Shown here one piece after another: positions 6,432 to 52,811 of a stretch of 64,000 nucleotides of DNA. The first letter of the stretch is position 1; every line of letters begins with the position of its first letter. Source of the stretch: Somniosus microcephalus (Eukaryota). The position numbers were made by a program, and so were the translations under genes. Location: assembly GCA_052327205.1 (NCBI GenBank), contig CM126210.1, forward strand, positions 60,450,001 to 60,514,000, given 5' to 3'. The notes beneath the pieces are model-generated. The model did no database searches. It was not told the origin of the DNA and saw only the letters and a program-made list of their open reading frames with translations.

Positions 6432-7004
6432 GTCTGCATTCTAGAGTGCGAAGGGAAAGTTGTATCCTCTGTTATTTGGGAAGACTGCAGAAAAATCGCC
6501 TCTGCATCACCAATGCTACCTCTGGACGTGAGCACATCTCAAGCCAGAAGCCTGCCTTTTGGTATTGCTGGAAGCAATGGGAGACTCAACTCGGTAAACA
6601 TTCATGGCTCTCTCCAAACAGTGAAGAACATGTCGCCCATTGGCAGCACAGAAGACATCTATGATGATGGAGCCGAAGCCACATTTGAGGTGGACAACAG
6701 TCGACAAGATACAGAGATGCCATCAGACCAGAGCTCCTTTGGTTTCCAAGCAGAGCCACTGGCTTCCAAAAGATATGGAGGGTTTATGAAGGGGAAACAC
6801 AATTTCAGAAACGTTGCTGAGGACAAGAGAAGTTTCCAGAAGAGATACGGCGGCTTCATGGGTGTCAGGAAATCGGCCAGGAACTGGAGCAATCTGAGCA
6901 GACAGACCAATCAGAAAAGATATAGCAAATTCCTGAGGCAGTACCTTGGGTTGACAACACGTTCTACTGAGTATGACAGTTTATCAGGCCACTTGGCTGT
7001 GTAA
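6432..7004 (+). CDS. PNOC: Prepronociceptin main coding exon
   Basis: Acceptor ttttag|GTC; VCILECEGK..W..C completes the six-Cys motif. Encodes KR-YGGFMKGKHNFRNVAED-KR, KR-YGGFMGVRKSARNWSNLSRQTNQ-KR (nociceptin-like RKSAR) and KR-YSKFLRQYLGL (NocII-like). Adjacent to FBXO16 as in other vertebrates. Confidence 0.95.
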   Translation, partial: VCILECEGKVVSSVIWEDCRKIASASPMLPLDVSTSQARSLPFGIAGSNGRLNSVNIHGSLQTVKNMSPIGSTEDIYDDGAEATFEVDNSRQDTEMPSDQSSFGFQAEPLASKRYGGFMKGKHNFRNVAEDKRSFQKRYGGFMGVRKSARNWSNLSRQTNQKRYSKFLRQYLGLTTRSTEYDSLSGHLAV

Positions 7005-21238: not shown

Positions 21239-23364
21239 AAATCTACTGACCTTGAGTGTTCAAGCTGACAGCCATCTGCAGTGTGACCTGATAGGAATAA
21301 TTTCAGGCTACTTCTAGTGTGCGCTTGCAAGCTTCTTGCCTCAAGTGAAATCTATAGCTACGGGATGGGAAACATTTATATCCTCTCATCCTGGTCGTCA
21401 GATTTGGAGGAAGAGCAGCTGCGGCAGCACCACAACCAGCCACAACAGCAGCACCAGCACCAGGAGCGCCAACCTCCTCCTCACTCACCTGATGATGCAC
21501 AGGCAGAGAGCCTCAGCGCAGGGCTGCACCTCGCCGCAGGAGATACCCCCAACACAGGGTTTACAGGCAGAGGATCAGCTTCCTCAGCATGACTGAGCAG
21601 CAGTGCCAAAGGTGGCTGAGACTTTTGAGAGACATAGTCGCTGCCATCTGCGCAGTGCTGCACCAACACCTGAAGCCTAGAGTGGCGTGTGGATGCACTC
21701 ATCCATGCCAGATTCGCGTAAGCTTACGCTTCAACCACAGGTGGCTGGCACATGGAGATGAATATAAGTCCGGCATTCTCAAAACCCCAGGCATCATCTG
21801 TCTGCTAAAGCGCTCAGTGTCACCACCAACATGGCATTCACCCTGAGCCCTCACTCTTGAACTTCAATTTCCCAGAACAGAGGCCACACTTTAGGTGATC
21901 CTAGCGGATCATTAAACCTTTTTCGACACTGAACCCATGTGCATCTGCGCACAGACCTCGAACTCACCTCCTCAGCAATTTGCAGCCAAGCTGCCTTGGT
22001 TTGCTGAGGAGGCCTCCTCCTTCCATTTCCAGGGAAGAGGACCTCCTGACATCATCTAACTCCCTCCACAAGAGCATGGAGGGAGCCCTCATTGAACCTG
22101 GCTGCAGCTTTAGTTTTTGGGGCTGCTATTCCTGCACCAGCCAGCACCTTTAAGAGAAAAAAGCATTAATTTTACCAAGCCAATGATTGGAACACATATT
22201 TTTCATTTCTTAGTCACATACTACATTGATATTTTAAAAATCCTAAATGTCTTTCTGGAATAATATGACCAGCAATTTCATTCAATTATTTGTGTTCACA
22301 CCAGCCACTGTCAACTCCCTTTTCTAGATAATACAGCACCAAGCCATTCCAGTTACATTTTTTGCAAAAGGGACATGGCCCCTTTAAATTTTTACTCCAA
22401 AAATGCATCATCAGACACGAGAAACTGACATGCTCCAAGTAATTGCCTGGAGGGACCCGCACATCGGCCGTAACGAGGCCAATCAAGCAAAAATCGGAAC
22501 TGCGGGCCGGCGGCATCCGGGAGTGGGTCCGAAAGCTGCCGAGCAGCGGGCCCGCCCTCAACCTGCCTCCTCTATAAAAATCAAGCCCACCGTCTTTCAG
22601 ATGAGACTTTAAACCAAGTCCTCTGCCCTCTCAGGTGAAGGTAAGAAGATCCCACAGCATTATATATCCTGGCCAACATTTATCCCATAACCAACATCAC
22701 TAAAAAACAGATTATCTGGTCATTATCAAATTGGCTGCTGTGTTTCCTAGTGATTTTAAAAGTACTTAATTGGCTGTTAAGTGCCTTGGGATGCCCTGAG
22801 GTTGTGAAAGGTGCTGTATAAATGTAAGTCCTTTCTTTCAAGCCATTACACGTGAACCAGAAACAGCCCTGAGGCCATTATTGTTTCAGCGCAATCTGGC
22901 TCTGCTGTTGTTTTTTTGATATGATTTGGGAGCCGCTATTTATTGAAAGGTTTTATCCAGATTCTCTGTAAGCATTGACTGCCCCCCTATGCATTCCGCA
23001 TTTGCTCGACCTTCATGAATAGTTCGAATTTTTCAGGGTTTCTTTTGTGGTGGGGGTATCTTTGGGGCAAAGGTGTCCCCCCCTTTTTCTCTTATTTTAT
23101 AATCGTGCAACGGCCTCACTGCTTGCAGTTTACTCTTTCAGTGGTCAGTGCTCCTAACTGAAGAGCTTTGGTCAGCAGTCCAAAACGTTAGCTCCTTATC
23201 CGAACTGTTGGTACCTAACGATCTCTGGTACAGTAGTGATCAGTCAGTATTCTCCCAGTGATTGACTGGAGAATAACATTGCCAACAGCGTATGTTCCTC
23301 AGGAGACAGCCTGGGTTCACCTGGGATACAGGTGAACATAGAACAAATCTCAACAAGCTACAGT

Positions 23365-23710
23365 CGAGTTAAGTTATCCAGAGGCTTAGACGAAGAATCC
23401 TGGGAATGCAAATTCAAATCCCATCATGCATTTGTGAGAATTTGAAATCAATTAAAAAAAATAAAAAATGACCATGAAGCTGTCGGATAGTCGTAAAAAC
23501 CCAATTGGTTCACTAGTGTCCCTTAGGGAAGGAAACCTGCTGTCCTTACCTGGTCTGAGCCTATATGTGACTCCAGTCCCACACCAACCTGGTTGACTCT
23601 TAATTGCCTACTGAAGTGGCCCAGCAAGCCCCTCAGTTGTGGTAACTAGGGATAGGCAATAAGTGCTGGCCTTGCCAGCAACGCACACATCCCGAGAATG
23701 AATTTTTTTT
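23365..23710 (+). mobile_element. tRNA-derived SINE sharing 5' body and 3' tail with the LINE at 44333-47468
   Basis: B-box-like ttcaaatccc, core ggttcacta.tgtcc.ttagggaaggaaa..ccttacctggtctg, tail actagggat.ggcaataa.tgctggccttgccag, terminal T8. Confidence 0.85.
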
Positions 23711-24126
23711 AAGTGATTTTGCTGGGGGGGGTGGGTTTAACCACAATTTTTTCTCCTCCCCACAAGGAACTGTCTCATACTAGGTATGATTTCATGCGCA
23801 CCAGCTCCCTTCTGGTAACTTGCCTGAGTGAGCAGCAGCAGACTATGCCGACTGAGGCCAATCTGGTGGCCATGTGCCTCATTTTCCAGTGGGGCAGGGG
23901 CGTCATAAAAATGATCAGGAGTGGCAACCCTAGCTGAACATCTCCACTCCCCATTCTGGGGTTACCGAGCCAATTGTAGGGCCAGGCTAAGACCAGCTAG
24001 TTCAGAACCGATGGGACATTGAGCCTGAAACCTCCCTGCTTTTGTAGTTCTTTCAAGGTGTAAGAGGTTTACTAATTATTTTGCTTGTGGAAGAACGAGA
24101 AGAAATATAAACTAAAAGGTACAATT

Positions 24127-25370: not shown

Positions 25371-26305
25371 GGGAACAGTAGCATAGTGGTTATGTTACTG
25401 GACTAGTAATCCCACCACGGCAGCTGGGGAATTTAATATTCAGTTAAGTAAATAACTCTGGAATAAAAAGCTAGTATCAGTAATGGTGACTTTCAGATTG
25501 TCGCAAAACACATCTGGTTCACTAATGTCCTTTAGGAAGGAAATATGCCATCCTTACCTGGTCTGGCCTACATGTGACTCCAGACCCACAGCAATGTGGT
25601 AGACTCTTAACTACCCTCTGAAATGGCCTAGCAAGCCACTCAGTTGTGAAAAACAATAATTAAAAAACCAGATGGACCACCCGGCATTGACCTTGGCACC
25701 GGCTACGGACATGACAACGGCACACCCAGTCCATTCGACCCTGCAAAGTCCTCACCAACATCTGGGCACTTGTGCCAAAATTGGGAGAGCTGTCCCACAG
25801 ACTAGTTAAGCAACAGCCTGACATGGTCATACTCACAGAATCATACCTTTCAGCCAATGTCCCAAACTCCTTCATCACCATCCCAGGGTATGTCCTGTCC
25901 CACCGGCACAGTGATATGCAGTCGAGAAGGAGTGGCCCTAGGAGTCCTCAACATTGACTCCAGATGAAGTCTCATGGCTTCAGGTGAAGCATGGGCAAGG
26001 AAACCTCCTGCAGATTACTGCCCTTCCTCATCTGATGAATCAATACTCCTCCATGCTGAACACCACTTGGAAGAAGCACTGAGAGTAGCAAGGGCACAGA
26101 ATGTACTCTGGGTGGGGGACTTCAATGTCCATCAGCAAGAGTGGCTCGGTAGCACCACTACTGGCCAAGTCCTGAAGCACATAGCTGCGACATGTGGTGA
26201 GAGAACCAACACGAGGGAAAAACCTACTTGACCAATCCTCACCAATCTACCTGTCGCAGATGCATCTGTCCAGTGACCACCACACAGTCGTCATGGAGAC
26301 GAAGT
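25371..26305 (+). mobile_element. 5' part of tRNA-headed single-ORF LINE (second copy)
   Basis: A-box TAGCATAGTGG at 25379, SINE-like body, then APE domain (LVPKLGELSHRL..VILTESYL, WVGDFNVH). Colinear with 46470-47468 (-). Confidence 0.88.
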
Positions 26306-26792
26306 CTCATTGAAACATACACGATTCTGAAGGGGATTGACAGGGTAGATGCTGAGAGGTTGTTTCCCCTGGCTGGAGTGTCTAGAACTGGAGGGCATAG
26401 TCTCAGGATAAGGGGTAGGCCATTTAAGACTGAGATGAGGGGAAATTTCTTCACTCAGAGGGTTGTGAATCTTTGGAATTCTCTGCCCCAGAGGGCTGTG
26501 AATGCTGAGTCTTTGAGTATATTCAAGGCTGAGATAGATAGATTTTTGGACTCTAGGGGAATCAAGGGATATGGAGATCGGGCAAGAAATAGGATCTGGA
26601 ATGCACTGCCTGTGAGGGTGGTGGAGGCAGATTCAATCGTGGCTTTCAAAAGGGAATTGGATAAGTACCTGAAGGAAAAAATTTTGCAGGGCTACGGAGA
26701 AAGGGGGTGGTGGGGTTTGGGAGCTCTTGCAGAAAGCCGGCACGGGCTTGATGGGCCGAATGGCCTCCTTCAGTGCTGTAACCATTCTATGA
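26306..26792 (+). mobile_element. Two fused CR1 3' fragments
   Basis: FFTQRVVNLWNSLP followed by a second IWNALP..FKRELDK segment and the CR1 tail. Confidence 0.85.
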
Positions 26793-42782: not shown

Positions 42783-44332
42783 CTTCCTGCATTACACCCA
42801 TATGGCACGGAGCAGTCCCGTGCAATAAAGTTTTAAGTAGGTTCACGGATTCCCAGGCCGCCTGCCTTTTCTGTGGCCTGGAGGAGTCCGTGCTCCATGT
42901 ATATATGGAGTGTGAGAGGTTGCAGCCCCTCTTCCACTATTTTAAGGGGCTGCTCCTCGATTTCTGGCTGCACTTCAGTCCCATGCTCTTTGGTCACCCG
43001 GAGCGGGCAGATCGGGGGGCCTCCACGTAGGACTGCTCCTGGGCATGGCCAAAGTGGCCATCAACTGGTCCAGGCAGTGGGTGGTCGAGGGGGTCATTCT
43101 GACTGCCTCTCTTCTGCGGCTACGTTCCCGTCCGGGTGGCCCTGGAGATGGAGCATGCGGTGTCCGCCAGCACGCTCGAGGCCTTCTGCGACCAGTGGGC
43201 ACCACAGAGGCTGGAGTGCATTATCACCATCAGTAATGGAATTTAAATTTAATTTATTAAGTTTCCTTTAATGTATTTTTGTTAATTTACAGTTTATTTG
43301 TTCGTACCCAAAAGCATACATCCATATGACTGCCACATGCCGTGCCAGGTTCCCCCACCACCCACCCTGCAACAACACCATAAAGCATACCTACAATGAC
43401 CAAGCCATTCCTTTCACACTGACCCCATTGCTGGAGGTAACGTTATGTCTCACCATTCACTCCAACTCACTTCCAAAGTAGCAGACAAAAATGTGCATGA
43501 ACGGAAAGTAGTTAAAATAAATAGTTTTATACGTGTCATAACAGTAGCGGAACCTTAACAATAACACTTCTTTAAACACCCATGTGCTTACCCTTGTGCA
43601 TCTACTTCTGTGTCATTTTTTGTTTATGCGTGCTTCTACGAAGTGCAACCCCTGTGGCTTCATCAGAGGTAGAGGCAGCCTGCTCACTTCCCTGCTGCGA
43701 CTGCGTAGACACTTTTGGCAGATGTACTCTGGGCTTTGGAGCCTCTGATGGCCCCGCCAAAGTTTGCTGCTCCTGAGACTGTGCAGAGGCAGACTCGGCC
43801 ATCGCGATCTGAGGAGGCATCTGGGGCTTTGACGGTGGGGGGCGGGGCAACAGGGGAGAAGTATGAGCAGTTTGAGAGGAGCCCCCACTTCCATGTCCCC
43901 TCTCACCATCATCCCTCTCATGGGCCACCTGCACTTCCCTGCCATGAGGACCCAAATCTACGTTTACATCCCTCCTAGAGAGAAGGTCTATGAGCCTCTG
44001 CCATCTGTTGTCCATAGATAGCATATGCTCATGAGTGGCGTATTAGCTGCTCCATGCAGGTGGCCATCCTTTCCATGGAAGAGCATACCGTCCCCGTCAC
44101 CTACAATATGGCGGTGCTCATGTTGGAGATGGACTCGTCCGTTTCCTGCACATTTGCAGACATCACAGCCACAAAACCTGACAGAGCCTCCTGCAACTCC
44201 AGGATCATCCTCTTTCTCGATGGCCCCTGAGGTGCAGCTGAGCAGAGCTGGGAGTTTTCCTGCGCCCTCCGGCGAGGAGTCTCCACTGCTGTCCCTGTCT
44301 CCACGATCTGCTTTTGCTCACTTGTGACTTTT

Positions 44333-47300
44333 AAAAAATTCGTTTTTATGGGATCTGGGTGTCACTGGCAAGGCCAGCATTTATTGCCCATCCCTAGTTG
44401 TCTTTGAGAAGGTGGTGGTGAGCCGCCTTCTTGAACTGCAGACCGTGTGGTGAAGGTACTCCCACAGTGCTGTTAGGTAGGGAGTTCCAGGATTTTGACC
44501 CAGCGATGATGAAGGATCGGCGATATACTTCTAAGTCAGAATGGTGTGTGACTTGGAGGGGAGCTTGGAGGTGGTGGTGTTCCCATGCACCTGCTGCCCT
44601 TGTCCTTCTAGGTAGAAGAGGTCGCGCATTTGGGAATTGCTGCCGAAGAAGCCTTGGCGAGTTGCTGCAGTGCATCTTGTAGATGGTGCACGCTGCAGCC
44701 ACGGTATGCCGGTGGTGGAGGGAGTGAATGTTTAAGGTGGTGGATGGGGTGCCAATCAAACGGGCTGCTTTATCCTGGATGGTGTTGAGCTTCTTGAGTG
44801 TTGTTGGAGCTGCACTCATCCAGGCAAGTGGAGAGTATTCCATCACACTCCTTACTTGTGTCTTGTAGGTGGAAAGGCTTTGGGGAGTCAGGAGGTGAGA
44901 CACTCGCCGCAGAATACCTAGCCTCTGACCTGCTCTTGTTGCCATAGTATTTATGTGGCTGCTCCAGTTAAGTTTCTGGTTAATGGTGACCCCCAGGATG
45001 TTGATAGTGGGGGATTCGCCGATGGTAATGCCATTGAATGTCAAGGGGAGATGGTTAGACTCTCGCTTGTTGGAGATAGTCATTGCCTGGCACTTCTGTG
45101 GCGTGAATGTTACCTGCCACTTATCAGCCCAAGCCTGCACATTGTCCAGGTCTTGTTGCATGCGGGCATGGACTGCTTCATTATCTGAGGAGTTGTGAAT
45201 GGCACTGAACACTGTGCAGTCATCAGCGAACATCCCCATTTCTGACCTCATGTTGGAGGGAAGGTCATTGATAAAGCAGCTGAAGATGGTTGGGCCTAGG
45301 ACACTGCCCCGAGGAACTTCTGCAGCAATGTCCTGGGGCTGTGATGATTGACCTTCAACCACCACAACCATCTTCCTTTGTGCTAGGTATGACTCCAGCC
45401 AGTGGAGCATTTTCCCCATTATTCCCATTGACTTCAGTTTTACTGGGGCTCCTTGATGCCACACTCGGTCAAATGCTGCCTTGATGTCAAGGGCAGTCAC
45501 TTTCACCTCACCTCTGGCATTCAGCTCCTTTGTCCATGTTTGGACCAAGGCTGTAATGAGGTCGGGAGCCGAGTGGTCTTGGCAGAACCCAAACTGGGCA
45601 TCAGTGAGCAGGTGCCGCTTGATAGCACTGTCGATGACACCTTCCATCACTTTGCTGATGATTGAGAGTAGACTGATGGGGCGGTAATTGGCTGGGTTGG
45701 ATTTGTCCTGCTTTTTGTGGACAGGACATACCTGGGCAGTTTTCCACATTGTCGGATAGCTGCCAGTGTTGTAGCTGTACTGGAACAGCTTGGCTAGAGG
45801 TGCGGCTAGTTCTGGAGCACAAGTCTTCAGCACGACAGCCGGGATGCATAGCCTTTGTTGTATCCAGTGCGCTCAGCCGTTTCTTGATATCACGTGGAGT
45901 GAATCAAATTGGCTGAAGACTGGCTTCTGTGACGTTGGGGACCTGGGGAGTATGCCGATATGGATCATCCACTCGGCACTTCTGGCTGCAAACGCTTCAG
46001 CCTTGTCTTTTGCACTCACGTGCTGAGCTCCACCATCATTGAGGATGGGGATATTTTTGGAGCCTCCTCCTCCCGTTAGTTGTTTAATGGTCCACCACCA
46101 TTCACGACTGGATGTGGCAGGACTGCAGAGCTTTGATCTGATCCGTTGATTGTGGGATTGCTTAGCCCTGTCTATAGCATGCTGTTTCCGCGTTTTAGCA
46201 TGCATGTAGTCCTGCGTTGCAGCTTCCCCAGGTTGGCACATCATTTTTAGAAGAGCATGCCTGGTGCTGCTCCTGGCATGCTCTTCTACACTCGTTGTTG
46301 AACCAGGGTTGGTGGTAATGGTAGAGTGAGGGATATGCTGGGCCATGAGGTTACAGATTGTGGTGGAATACAATTCTGCTGCTGCCCCACATCTGTTCTG
46401 AATCTATCCCATTTAGCACGGTGGTAGTGTCAGACAACACGATGGAGGGTGTTCGCAGTGTGAAGACGGGACTTCGTCTCCACAATGACTGTGCGGTGGT
46501 CACTGCTGCCATGGACAGATGCATCTGCGACAGGTAGATTGGTGAAGACGAGGTCAAGTCGGTTTTTCCCTCATGTTGGTTCTCTCACCAGGCCCAGACT
46601 GGCAGTTATGTCCTTCAGGACTCGGCCAGCAGTGGTGCTACCGAGCCATTCTTGGTGATGGACATTGAAGGCCCCCACCCAGGGTACATTCTGTGCCCCT
46701 GCTACTCTCAGTGCTTCTTCCAAGTGGTGTTCAACATGGCGGAGTACTGATTCATCAGCTGACGGAGGGCAGTAGGTGGTAATCAGCAGGCGGTTTCCTT
46801 GCCCATGCTTGACCTGAAGCCATGAGGCTTCATGGGGTTCGGAGTCAATGTTGAAGACTCCCAGGGCCACTCCTTCCCAACTGTATACCACTCCGCCACC
46901 ACCCCTGGCGGGTCTGTCCTGCCGGTGGGACAGGACACACCAGGGATGGTGATGGAGGAGTTTGGGACATTGGCATGATTCTGTTGCTTGACTAGTCTAT
47001 GGGACAGCTCTCCCAATTTTGGCACAAGTCCCCCAATATTGGTGAGGAAGACTTTGCAGGGTTGACGTGTCTGGTGCCGAGGTCAATGCCAGGTGGTCCG
47101 TCCGGTTTTATTCTTATTATTTTGTTTCATAGCAGTTAGTTACAACTGATTGACTTGCTAGGCCATTTCAGAGGGTAGTTAAGAGACAACCACATTGGTG
47201 TGGGTTTGGAGTCACATATAGGCCAGACCAGGTAAGGACAGCCAATTTCCTTCCCTAAAGGACATTAGTGAACCAGATGGGTTTTTATGACAATCTGGTA

Positions 47301-47468
47301 GTTGCATGGTTACCATTACTGATACTAGCTTTTTAATCCAGATTTATTTAATTAACTGAATTTAAATTCCTCAGCTGCTGTGGTGGGATTTGAACTCACA
47401 TCTCTGGATCATTAATCCAGGCCTCTGGATTACTAGCCCAGTGACATTACCACTATGCTACCATTCCC
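44333..47468 (-). mobile_element. Single-ORF APE-RT non-LTR retrotransposon with tRNA-type 5' head (clade unresolved, CR1/L2-group-like)
   Basis: A-box 47450-47460, B-box 47387-47395. Frameshifted APE fragments at 46351-47040. RT ORF 44394..45833 (NYRPISLL, LDIKAAFDRVWH, PRGSVLGP, FADD). Terminal T6 at 44333-44338. Confidence 0.92.
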
Positions 47469-48339
47469 TGTTGACAACACTACTCTATCTTACATAGGAC
47501 CCACCAAGGTGTGCGTATCTGCGCTGGTACTGGGTGTGCTTTGGTCTGGTGACAGTGCACCCTCAGAGGCTGGAGGCTGCTCTGAGGAGTCGTCTTCCTC
47601 CTCCGGCTGGACATGCGGGGGGTACTCTTGATGGACCTATGGGAGAGTAAAGAGATGATTTAGAAATGTTATATTAATGATGGGTAATGTTACCTTTATG
47701 CACATGATGAACATTCACTGGCTGCTGACATCAGTCACCATATGAGTGATTGCTGTATGCCTTGTGGCTGTATGAGATGTACCAGGTTGCTGAGAGATCC
47801 CCCTCTCTCTGTCTCCAACCGCCAGCAGTTCCACAACATTTGACAACTCCAGGGCGATCTCCTCTGCTGGAGTTAAAGTGGTGAATGACGGAGGGCTACC
47901 TCCGGTTCTCTCCCTCTCCCTGTTGTGCGCTTGTTTCGCCTGCAAGGAGGGAAAGAAGAGAAGTTTAAGTGAGAGTGATGGCATGAGTGTAAAAATGTGT
48001 GGGTTTCATCTGTAGAGGGTGACTATGAGGGAATGTGGTGCCAATGCCAAATGGCCTCCTTGTGTGGTGTTACTTGGTATGATTGCATTAGGATGAGGGT
48101 GTATGTGAGAGGTGGTTAGTCAAAGGGGGATGTGAGTATGTGCACAGAGAGGGATGGGTGGCCGTGCAAGGTATGTTGGTGTGAGTAATAACAACAGAAA
48201 ATGCTGGAAAAACTCAGCAGGTCAGGCAACATCCGTGGAGAGAAATTTGAGTTGACGTTTCGGGTTTGACCCTTCTTCAAAACTGGAGAGAAAAGGAACT
48301 GGATCGAAGGCAGGGCTGCGATCGGACCCTTTCTCCCGC

Positions 48340-50328
48340 TTGCAGAATTCCCATTCTACCTGGACCCCTCCCCCTGGCCTCTTACCCTCTCTAGATCTTT
48401 TCATCGCTAACTGCCGACGTGACATCGGCCGTCTCCATTTCTCTGCTCCCCTCACTCACTCCAACCTACCTCCCTCTGAACTTGCAGCACTCCATTCTCT
48501 TAGATCCAACCCTGACATTGTCATTAAACCTGCTGACAAGGGTGGTGCTGTTGTTGTTTGGCGTACTGACCTCTACCTAGCGGAAGCTGAACGCCAACTC
48601 TCCGACACCTCCTCCTACCTCCACCTGGACCATGACCCCACTACCGAACATCAAACCACCGTTTCCAAGACTGTCACTGACCTCATCTCCTCTGGAGATC
48701 TTCCCCCCGCTGCCACCAACCTCATAGTTCCCCAACCCCGCACAGCCCGCTTCTACCTCCTTCCCAAGATCCACAAACAGGACTGCCCTGGTAGACCCAT
48801 CGTTTCAGCCTGTTCTTGCCCTACGGAACTTATCTCTTCCTATCTTGACTCTATCTTTTCTCCCCTTGTCCAGTCTCTTCCCACCTACATCCGCGACTCT
48901 TCGGACGCCCTCCGCCACTTTAACAGTTTCCAGTTTCCTGGCCCCAACCGCTTCCTTTTCACCATGGACGTACAATCCCTCTACACCTCCATCCCCCACC
49001 CGGATGGCCTGAGGGCACTCCGCTTCTTCCTTGAACAGAGGCCCGACCAGTCCCCATCCACCACGACCCTCCTCCGCCTGGCTGAACTTGTTCTCACATT
49101 GAACAACTTCTCCTTTAACTCCACTCATTTCCTCCAAATCAAAGGTGTTGCCATGGGTACCCGCATGGGTCCTAGCTATGCCTGCCTTTTCGTGGGCTAT
49201 GTGGAACAATCTTTGTTCCAGTCCTACTCGGGTCCCCTCCCTCACCTCTTTTTCCGATACATTGATGACTGTATCGGTGCCGTTTCCTGCTCTCGCCCCG
49301 AACTTGACAATTTCATTCACTTTGCCTCCAATTTCCACCCTTCCCTCACCTTCACATGGTCCATCTCTGACTCTTCCCTTCCCTTCCTCGACTTCTCCGT
49401 CTCCATCTCTGGGGATAGGTTATCGACCAATATTTACTACAAGCCCACTGACTCCCACAGCTACCTGGACTACACTTCCTCCCACCCCGCTTCCTGTAAG
49501 GACTCTATTCCATTCTCCCAGTTTCTCCGCCTCCGCCGTATCTGCTCCGACGATGCCACCTTCCACACCAGTGCTTCAGACATGTCTTCCTTTTTCCGCA
49601 ACCGAGGATTCCCCTCTACCGTGGTTGACACTGCCCTCGACCGCGTCAGTTCTATCTCCCGCACCTCTGCCCTCACCCCTGCCCCTCCCTCCCGGAACCA
49701 CGATAGGGTTCCCCTTGTCCTCACCTTTCACCCCACCAGCCTCCACATTCAACGGATCATCCTCCGGCATTTCCGCTACCTCCAAAGTGATCCCACCACC
49801 AAACGTATCTTCCCCTCCCCTCCCCTTTCAGCATTCCGCAGGGACCGCTCTCTCCGAGACGCCCTAGTCCACTCCTCTATCACCCCAAACAGCCCTTCCC
49901 CTTCGCCTGGCACCTTCCCGTGCAAGCGGAGGAGATGTAACACCTGCCCCTATACCTCCCCCCTCCCCACTGTCCAGGGCCCCAAACACCCCTTCCAGGT
50001 GAAACAGTGATTTACTTGTACTTCTTGCAATCTAGTATACTGTATTCGCTGCTCACGATGCGGTCTCCTCTACATTGGGGAGACCAAACGCAGATTGGGT
50101 GACCGCTTTGCGGAACACCTCCGTTCAGTCCGTAAGGGTGACCCCGAGCTTCCGGTCGCCTGTCATTTCAATTCACCGCTCCATTCCCACTCGGACCTCA
50201 CCGTCCTTGGCCTCTTGTACTGTTCCACGGAAGCTCAACGTAAACTCGAGGAACAGCACCTCATCTTCCGATTAGGCACTCTGCAGCCTTCCGGTCTCAA
50301 TATCGAGTTCAACAATTTCAGATCATAA
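48340..50328 (+). pseudogene. Penelope RT/GIY-YIG ORF with a single nonsense codon
   Basis: IKPADKGG, LPKIHK, GVAMGT, RYIDD; TGA at 50008-50010. Confidence 0.9.
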
Positions 50329-51865: not shown

Positions 51866-52467
51866 CGATGAATGCCAGTATTGCCAGCGTCAGCCACACC
51901 CCGAGAACAAGTTGTCTGAGAGTGCTGAATTTATGGTTTCTGTTCGGCAGATATTCACCACGTTATCTTCATAGAATTATACAGCACAGAAGGAGGCCAT
52001 TCAGTCCATTGTGCCTGTGCCAGCTCTTTGAAAGAGCCATCCAGTTCTTTCTTTCTTTAACTGGTAGAAATGGGCTGTATGAGTCCAAAGTTAGCATGTA
52101 AGGTCAAAGTGTTGTTCTGACTTCAGGAATAATCAAAATATATTCACATTTTCATCAAATGATGGATTAATCCTAGACATAATGGCCCTGAAGATGGCCC
52201 CTTGGAGCTGCTCCCGCTCCACGCCGCCGTACTGCAGGAATCCCCACCACTTGGTTTGTGTGCTGATACATGATTGAGGTATCCTCAACTACATCAAGCT
52301 ACACAGACAGCACAGTAAGTACTACAACATTCTCCCATTCTGCAGAAGCACCTGCCCACTCCACAAACTATTAGTTTGTTTAACTAGTTTTACTATTAAA
52401 AGGAACCAACGAGAGATTTTTTTTAATTTGTGAAAACACCACCATAAACCTTCTGTCTTGATGTTAC

Positions 52468-52674
52468 CTGTGCACAGCGGCAAAGGCTCCTTGGATCCAA
52501 GAAGGAGAAGATGTACAAAGCCAGCACTCTGGGAAGGAAACAAGTGAAGTCCAGAGCCTCCGCAGGAACTCTGCTATGCAAATGTTGCTCACAGAATTTC
52601 AACTGAGAGACAGAACATCTTTCAAACAGGTCGAGAAGAATCTTGCGACGCTGTGAGTCAGTCCACTTGTCAAA
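52468..52674 (-). CDS. FBXO16: FBXO16 F-box-containing exon
   Basis: ttcag|TTT ... CAG|gtaac. Encodes FDKWTDSQRR..AEALDFT..LPRVL.LYIFSFLDPRSLCRCAQ. Confidence 0.95.
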
Positions 52675-52811
52675 CTGAACAAGGAAGCAAGAGAAAGTAA
52701 AAACACAGTCAATCCCACTCATCACCAATGTGGTAACATCAGTTTTCCCTAATGATGCCATCCACATTGCTATCACCAAAATATCTATTATATATTAAAA
52801 ATAGTGAGCCG

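Follow-up and report, generated by a model that had tools for sequence, protein, structure and literature searches.

tRNA-headed Zenon LINEs of Somniosus microcephalus and SINEs made of their two ends: a probable case of repeated internal deletion

Genes and repeats of the window

The window, by which we mean the whole analysed stretch, comprises 64,000 nucleotides of Somniosus microcephalus contig CM126210.1 (assembly GCA_052327205.1, positions 60,450,001 to 60,514,000 of the forward strand). An exon of an opioid neuropeptide precursor with YGGF motifs lies at 6432-7004 on the plus strand (Pfam Opiods_neuropep), which we take to be nociceptin-like, and an F-box exon lies at 52423-52794 on the minus strand, its host gene probably spanning part of the window. 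Between 41820 and 51195, a Zenon LINE and a Penelope-like RT element with a 584-aa open frame (48256-50010) are situated between a weak match to DDE_Tnp_4 and a match to Myb/SANT, and both are probably nested inside a Harbinger-like DNA transposon. A second element, presumably also Penelope-like, has a 540-aa open frame at 649-2271 on the plus strand and is young, since its relatives are diverged by about 1%. ARAGORN found no tRNA genes in the window. The repeats, the opioid-precursor exon and the likeness of the LINE to published elements of sharks and rays indicate a cartilaginous fish.

A SINE copy of the subfamily that we call B occupies 23357-23710 on the plus strand and is composed of a decayed tRNA-like head, a leader and a LINE 3' tail. 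The sequence-only reading had described the element as starting at 23365 and as the leader of a LINE joined to the 3' end of that LINE and ending in T8. Two BLAST blocks, one on each side of a joint at 23640/23641, bear out this composition, and the element is real, but alignment to the B leader profile places its start nearer to 23357. The head remnant (23357-23422, from the alignment to the B profile) has lost its A box through gaps of 11 and 7 nt and retains a decayed B box at 23410-23421. The leader common to SINE and headed LINE follows at 23423-23640, as delimited by BLAST and the B-profile alignment; within the window, SINE positions 23471-23640 correspond to minus-strand LINE leader positions 47310-47142 (170 nt, 82.9% identity, E 5e-45), and 23644-23714 correspond to the LINE end at 44399-44327 (73 nt, 80.8%, E 5e-13). 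Because the first match reaches far into the leader body beyond the tRNA-like part, generic tRNA similarity, which that reading had named as the observation that would overturn it, is ruled out. The LINE-derived tail spans 23641-23702, with the old ORF2 stop codon at 23647-23649, so that the joint lies six bases 5' of this codon. The tail contains AATAAG at 23658-23663, where most other copies have AATAAA, and the T8 run at 23703-23710 forms the 3' end of the SINE.

The LINE at 44330-47468 on the minus strand is a full-length, decayed Zenon copy of subfamily A, complete from head to tail and without ORF1. Its tRNA-like head is followed by roughly 330 nt of leader, a short linker and then an endonuclease-RT frame that is broken. 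The head (47382-47461) has an A-box-like motif at 47460-47450 and a B-box-like motif at 47397-47386, and scores 26.3 bits against the Rfam tRNA model (E 0.0024), which is below the gathering score of 29. According to BLAST within the window, the part of the leader common with the SINE is 47142-47381. The broken ORF2 (44394-47040) comprises pieces of the endonuclease and an open RT frame of 492 aa (45872-44394), with Pfam matches to RVT_1 (E 6.6e-34) and Exo_endo_phos_2 (E 6.6e-05). The copy differs from the family profile by 4.1% substitutions and 11 small deletions. With APE and RT in a single ORF, a poly-A tail and no ORF1, the parent LINE appears to be a Zenon element of the CR1 group, a name given because it matches published rows by eye over their first 400 nt. 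A second headed Zenon copy of A type, at 25371-26306 on the plus strand, has the head, the leader and the start of the endonuclease, and its 3' part is absent.

A comparison of the window SINE with the subfamily profiles gives 87.2% identity to B, 83.4% to A and 76.0% to C. At 11 sites that are diagnostic of LINE-A versus LINE-B, the SINE has nine B marks and one A mark, and the window LINE nine A marks and two B marks, which indicates that the two are relatives, not parent and child. The earlier statement that both partners are present in the window thus stands at the level of the family and fails at that of the subfamily, the SINE being of B type and the LINE of A type. Neither of them showed a target-site duplication. 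The SINE copy itself is probably dead, an ordinary decayed repeat.

Headed Zenon subfamilies and their SINEs

In the host genome of 6.45 Gb, a SINE query returned 6792 candidates, and leader and tail were both present in all 29 other loci that were fetched, of which 16 represent one duplicated insertion. A query running from the head into the endonuclease returned 10703 candidates, and the leader runs into ORF2 in 29 of 29 other loci. Fourteen of the 20 LINE copies that were extended are complete from head to tail; 11 of these 14 start with the same few bases, and four have flanking repeats of 19-34 nt, three of which resemble tandem repeats of the host. Evenly spaced samples at fixed round coordinates on large contigs, 798 kb in total, contained 13 leader-bearing elements, namely 11 that run from leader to tail, one headed LINE and one interrupted element, together with 12 LINE 3' ends; short forms thus outnumber headed LINEs 11:1 in this sample. 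Scaled by hand from the same 798 kb, the genome holds roughly 90,000 SINE copies (rough range 45,000-160,000) and about 100,000 LINE ends. By their anatomy the elements form a tRNA-derived SINE family (SINE2), short, non-coding and present in many copies, with a tRNA-related head that has A-box-like and B-box-like motifs and with a LINE-related 3' tail. As a separate observation, one SINE-B insertion was copied together with its flanks as part of a large duplicated unit, with near-identical loci on contigs C30, C62 and C76 (the 16 loci counted once are L003, L004, L009-L011, L014, L016-L022 and L027-L029).

This one genome contains three subfamilies of headed LINEs, which increase in age from A through B to C, and every subfamily is paired with a SINE of its own that bears the corresponding leader marks. 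Four classes (LINE-A, SINE-A, LINE-B and SINE-B) are separated among 128 leaders; one of the rows classed as LINE-A is in fact a SINE-A that has inserted into a LINE. The majority sequence of SINE-B differs from LINE-B at three sites and from LINE-A at 14. Subfamily B was found through recurring sites of difference between SINE and LINE and is an older LINE with a full head and its own linker. Subfamily C, whose similarity to the A reference is about 65-73%, was found through the tail motif of an old copy; its leader runs into the endonuclease in LINE-C copies, the head is visible in three of them (L399, L404, L420), and SINE-C copies were found in the genome beside headed or leader-bearing LINE-C copies. 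The old 3' fragment L109, used as a query, retrieved solely young A-type copies, at 71-74%, and no member of the subfamily to which it belongs; an old B-type leader likewise retrieved mostly young A-type copies. A further young branch of headed Zenon elements, A2 (L406, L408, L416, L421), has a divergence of about 2.5%, and its tRNA-like head carries a different insert.

The divergence of leaders from the majority of their class is 5.2% for LINE-A, a sample consisting of best hits, 9.0% for SINE-A (n=6), 12.5% for LINE-B, 9.3% for SINE-B, 13.5% for LINE-C (n=6) and 13.8% for SINE-C. The comparison of SINE and LINE divergence that the sequence-only reading had suggested therefore supports a SINE younger than its LINE for B only; in C the two are level, and SINE-A is more diverged than LINE-A. 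Because class-specific queries fetched the copies, class sizes are biased.

We also built the suggested phylogeny of the shared leader, using 50 of 146 rows (the longest eight per class and the window rows), and SINEs are intermixed with LINEs within the subfamilies. SINEs and LINEs are mixed in the C clade (support 100/100), in the A group (99/92) and, with weaker support, in the B group (82/74). When the leader tree was constrained, a single SINE clade was rejected with a delta lnL of 198 and a p-AU of 1.6e-67. The A, B and C labels were derived from the leader columns on which this tree is built; the labels SINE and LINE and the endonuclease tree are independent of them. The endonuclease tree, based on 29 of 34 candidate copies, tracks the leader type with five changes, compared to a minimum of four and a shuffled mean of 16.3, and hence leader and ORF have been inherited together in the LINE.

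The tail marks of each SINE match those of its own LINE clearly for A and C and weakly for B, for which three LINE-B tails are linked to a B leader. Tail site -13 is a T in 7/9 LINE-C tails, which were chosen by a motif, and in 12/14 SINE-C tails, and it is an A in 71/73 LINE-A and 7/7 SINE-A tails. Head-less relatives of the LINE, which had also been proposed as worth seeking, were looked for among 16 endonuclease-reaching Zenon copies selected without using the head. Ten of them have the leader or linker, six end early in unrelated flanks, and an alternative 5' UTR is present in none of the 16.

The position of the junction differs between subfamilies. B junctions retain a very variable 47-117 nt of tail in 34 usable rows (rows L134, L278, L279, L280 and L378, whose junctions had been miscalled, are omitted from the ranges), often falling 15 nt after the leader end with a tail of about 93 nt; the longest extend at most about 22 nt beyond the conserved leader end, into the LINE linker. 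The window copy has a tail of 53 nt, counted up to the terminal ATCCC. In C the junctions are concentrated at a single position: most lie some 26 nt short of the leader end and are followed by 55 nt of tail. The exact motif preceding the junction gave 19 matches, and the tail follows in 18 of them. In 33 of 38 B rows the SINE tail still contains ORF2 coding sequence, and 3/90 LINE ends, mostly young ones, lack at least 8 nt in the junction segment.

Deletions of more than 100 nt are present in 10 of 29 headed A copies, and they show no clustering at the SINE junction. Expressed per 10 kb, large deletions number 1.1 in Zenon and 0.9-1.1 in CR1 and Penelope copies. Because these controls give similar rates, we dropped the idea of an internal deletion peculiar to Zenon or of a special reverse-transcriptase jump; the distinctive point is that deleted Zenon copies retain a promoter-like head and a tail. 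In genome-wide samples, retroelement copies have about 0.6-1.6 deletions of 5-40 nt per kb and about one of more than 100 nt per 10 kb.

Transcription and translation signals

The tRNA-like head contains an internal duplication, and A-box-like and B-box-like motifs are found in the A, A2 and B family profiles. The sense strand of the 3298-nt A profile does not contain a single TTTT run. The expected number is 4.0 under a base shuffle (P 0.017), 1.5 under a dinucleotide shuffle (P 0.20) and 1.9 under a synonymous-codon shuffle (P 0.12), so the absence of TTTT is weakly significant and depends on the shuffle control. Eleven copies and the window LINE, which are not independent of one another, have four TTTT runs in total, and in five further retroelement frames of the window T runs are about as frequent as expected or more so. 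At the 3' end, AATAAA is kept in 71/79 LINE ends and 19/26 SINE ends, some 30 nt upstream of the conserved end of the tail. A run of at least four T precedes the A tail in 26/79 LINE ends and 8/26 SINE ends, and most ends have a single T. The head, the scarcity of TTTT and the AATAAA and T-run ends are compatible with Pol III transcription of both the SINE and the LINE, as far as signals in the DNA can indicate.

In all four subfamily profiles, the stretch from the last stop to the endonuclease motif lacks an in-frame ATG. The B and C profiles have in-frame stops eight codons 5' of the endonuclease motif, which we gave no weight because they may reflect CpG decay. Pseudoknot-free folding of the four subfamily profiles yielded no overall signal of a leader fold (z -0.6 to +0.4) and one compensatory pair, and gives no support to a conserved global RNA fold or an IRES-like leader structure.

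Origin of the SINEs

How did a SINE come to carry both ends of one LINE? We consider it probable, at roughly 0.75, that the window SINE stems from an older B-subfamily LINE copy that lost its coding middle and that internal deletion has produced SINEs repeatedly in this genome. The simplest account would have a headed LINE undergo such deletion at least three times. We infer that the tRNA-like head was passed down with the LINE. Ordinary internal deletions, of the kind that hit other retroelements too, would leave the internal promoter and the RT-bound 3' end, and the deleted unit would amplify directly as a SINE, no head-capture step being needed. Many SINE copies would act as sources and trim the useless end of ORF2, giving rise to the spread of junctions. 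For both the SINE and the full LINE, Pol III transcription is predicted, and ORF2 has a putative non-AUG start. More tentatively, and with the odds leaning somewhat against it, any clean deletion of the middle of a headed LINE might yield a working SINE, and this might have happened in each LINE generation. Of the two origins that the sequence-only reading had offered, internal deletion of the headed LINE is retained, as a repeated event, and capture is given up as the source of today's SINEs.

Capture here means that the LINE acquired the head and body of a SINE in a single ancient event and that the present SINEs descend from that SINE, their tail shared with the LINE by the usual partner route. 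The internal duplication in the tRNA-like head, which is common in SINE heads, favours such a history, as do the hagfish and coelacanth Zenon rows, in whose first 400 nt no head is visible by eye and which imply that the head was gained at some point. However, we regard this course of events as unlikely because the leader tree rejects a single SINE clade; moreover, SINE leaders match the contemporary LINE subfamily, and B junctions reach into the LINE linker. An ancient capture could explain the head, but not three matched pairs of SINE and LINE. Capture may still have occurred once in the distant past, giving the LINE its first head.

An equally improbable history would be a separate SINE lineage that swapped its 5' and 3' parts with the LINE by template switching or gene conversion and so underwent concerted evolution. 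Repeated swaps of both ends would give a similar tree, SINE-A is not younger than the sampled LINE-A, and module exchange between SINEs has been described in two papers (PMC5499810, PMC5786205). On the other hand, this history needs two swaps per generation, one of the leader and one of the tail, while the junctions differ between B and C, the endonuclease tree tracks the leader type and intermediate copies exist. Least probable is that the short forms are not a replicating SINE family and that each one is made anew, either when the reverse transcriptase jumps on LINE RNA or when an inserted copy later suffers a deletion. The variability of the B junctions (47-117 nt), the mere 3/90 LINE ends that lack at least 8 nt in the junction segment and the large deletions in 10/29 headed A copies are what such a process might leave behind, but it is hard to reconcile with the 11:1 excess of short forms over headed LINEs in 798 kb, with the recurrence of the C junction at one place, and with large deletions that are about as common in CR1 and Penelope as in Zenon and unclustered at the SINE junction.

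Recurrent internal deletion, the reading that we prefer, can be set against the published systems. Zenon LINEs of elasmobranchs have been described by Stuart et al. 2026 (PMC13343379), and they resemble the present LINE in having ORF2 only, no ORF1, a poly-A tail and a length of about 3.3 kb. In the supplement of that paper, seven consensus rows from sharks and rays, compared by eye over their first 400 nt, start with the same head and leader. In the main text the word tRNA does not occur and SINE occurs once, and the head, the derived SINEs and the succession of A, B and C are not seen in the passages compared. A tRNA-headed autonomous shark LINE was likewise absent from the literature titles and abstract beginnings surveyed. 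It appears, then, that the Zenon LINE is known and that we did not find its head and derived SINEs described.

A close parallel is Persaeus, a short, internally deleted derivative of lepidopteran Zenon (PMC6740152), which also combines the 5' and 3' ends of Zenon, has several origins and reaches a high copy number. Persaeus has no tRNA homology or Pol III promoter in the description given there, whereas the parent LINE here has a tRNA-like head, so that its deleted form, unlike Persaeus, has the anatomy of a SINE. Judged by its structure, the SINE behaves as a SIDE, with both LINE ends and several origins; unlike a SIDE it has a small-RNA head, and we do not class it as one. A body and a tail that derive from the 5' and 3' regions of a single LINE are also reported for Bov-tA and SINE2_Gav (Kojima 2018, PMC5786205) and for hagfish SINE1-1_EBu (PMC7245038). 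The published model for SINEs with a LINE-derived body, as given in part of PMC5786205, is deletion within a Pol II LINE followed by capture of a small-RNA head. The bipartite SINEs in that account, in which the head was added later to the deleted Pol II LINE, involve just RTE and Vingi; in contrast, the LINE here belongs to the CR1 group and is already headed at full length, and one deletion is therefore enough in place of the two published steps.

Other likenesses concern single features. Mammalian B2, Dip and Ves also have AATAAA in the 3' tail and a T run before the A tail, a run that about a third of the ends show here, and PMC8466645 reports that their Pol III transcripts are polyadenylated; here such polyadenylation would be a prediction from the sequence, and the arrangement is present on a coding LINE as well. 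CmiSINE and SacSINE1 are, like the present element, tRNA-headed SINEs of cartilaginous fishes, with CORE or Deu bodies and L2 tails according to the descriptions in PMC5499810 by which we compared them.

With a parent that was already headed, the birth of a SINE by one-step deletion would be recorded three times in one genome, and the family, rather than the window copy, is of interest as a dated and repeated case of such a birth. The headed LINE also bears on the question of whether a Pol III promoter can drive a coding retrotransposon of 3.3 kb. Beyond this genome, leader-to-tail joints were found in contigs of 4/4 runs, from four other organisms, and in two further organisms there are contigs that connect the leader with the endonuclease. 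Leader-bearing elements often lie beside or inside copies of their own family (L005, L053, L100, L132, L264), which may reflect a target preference.
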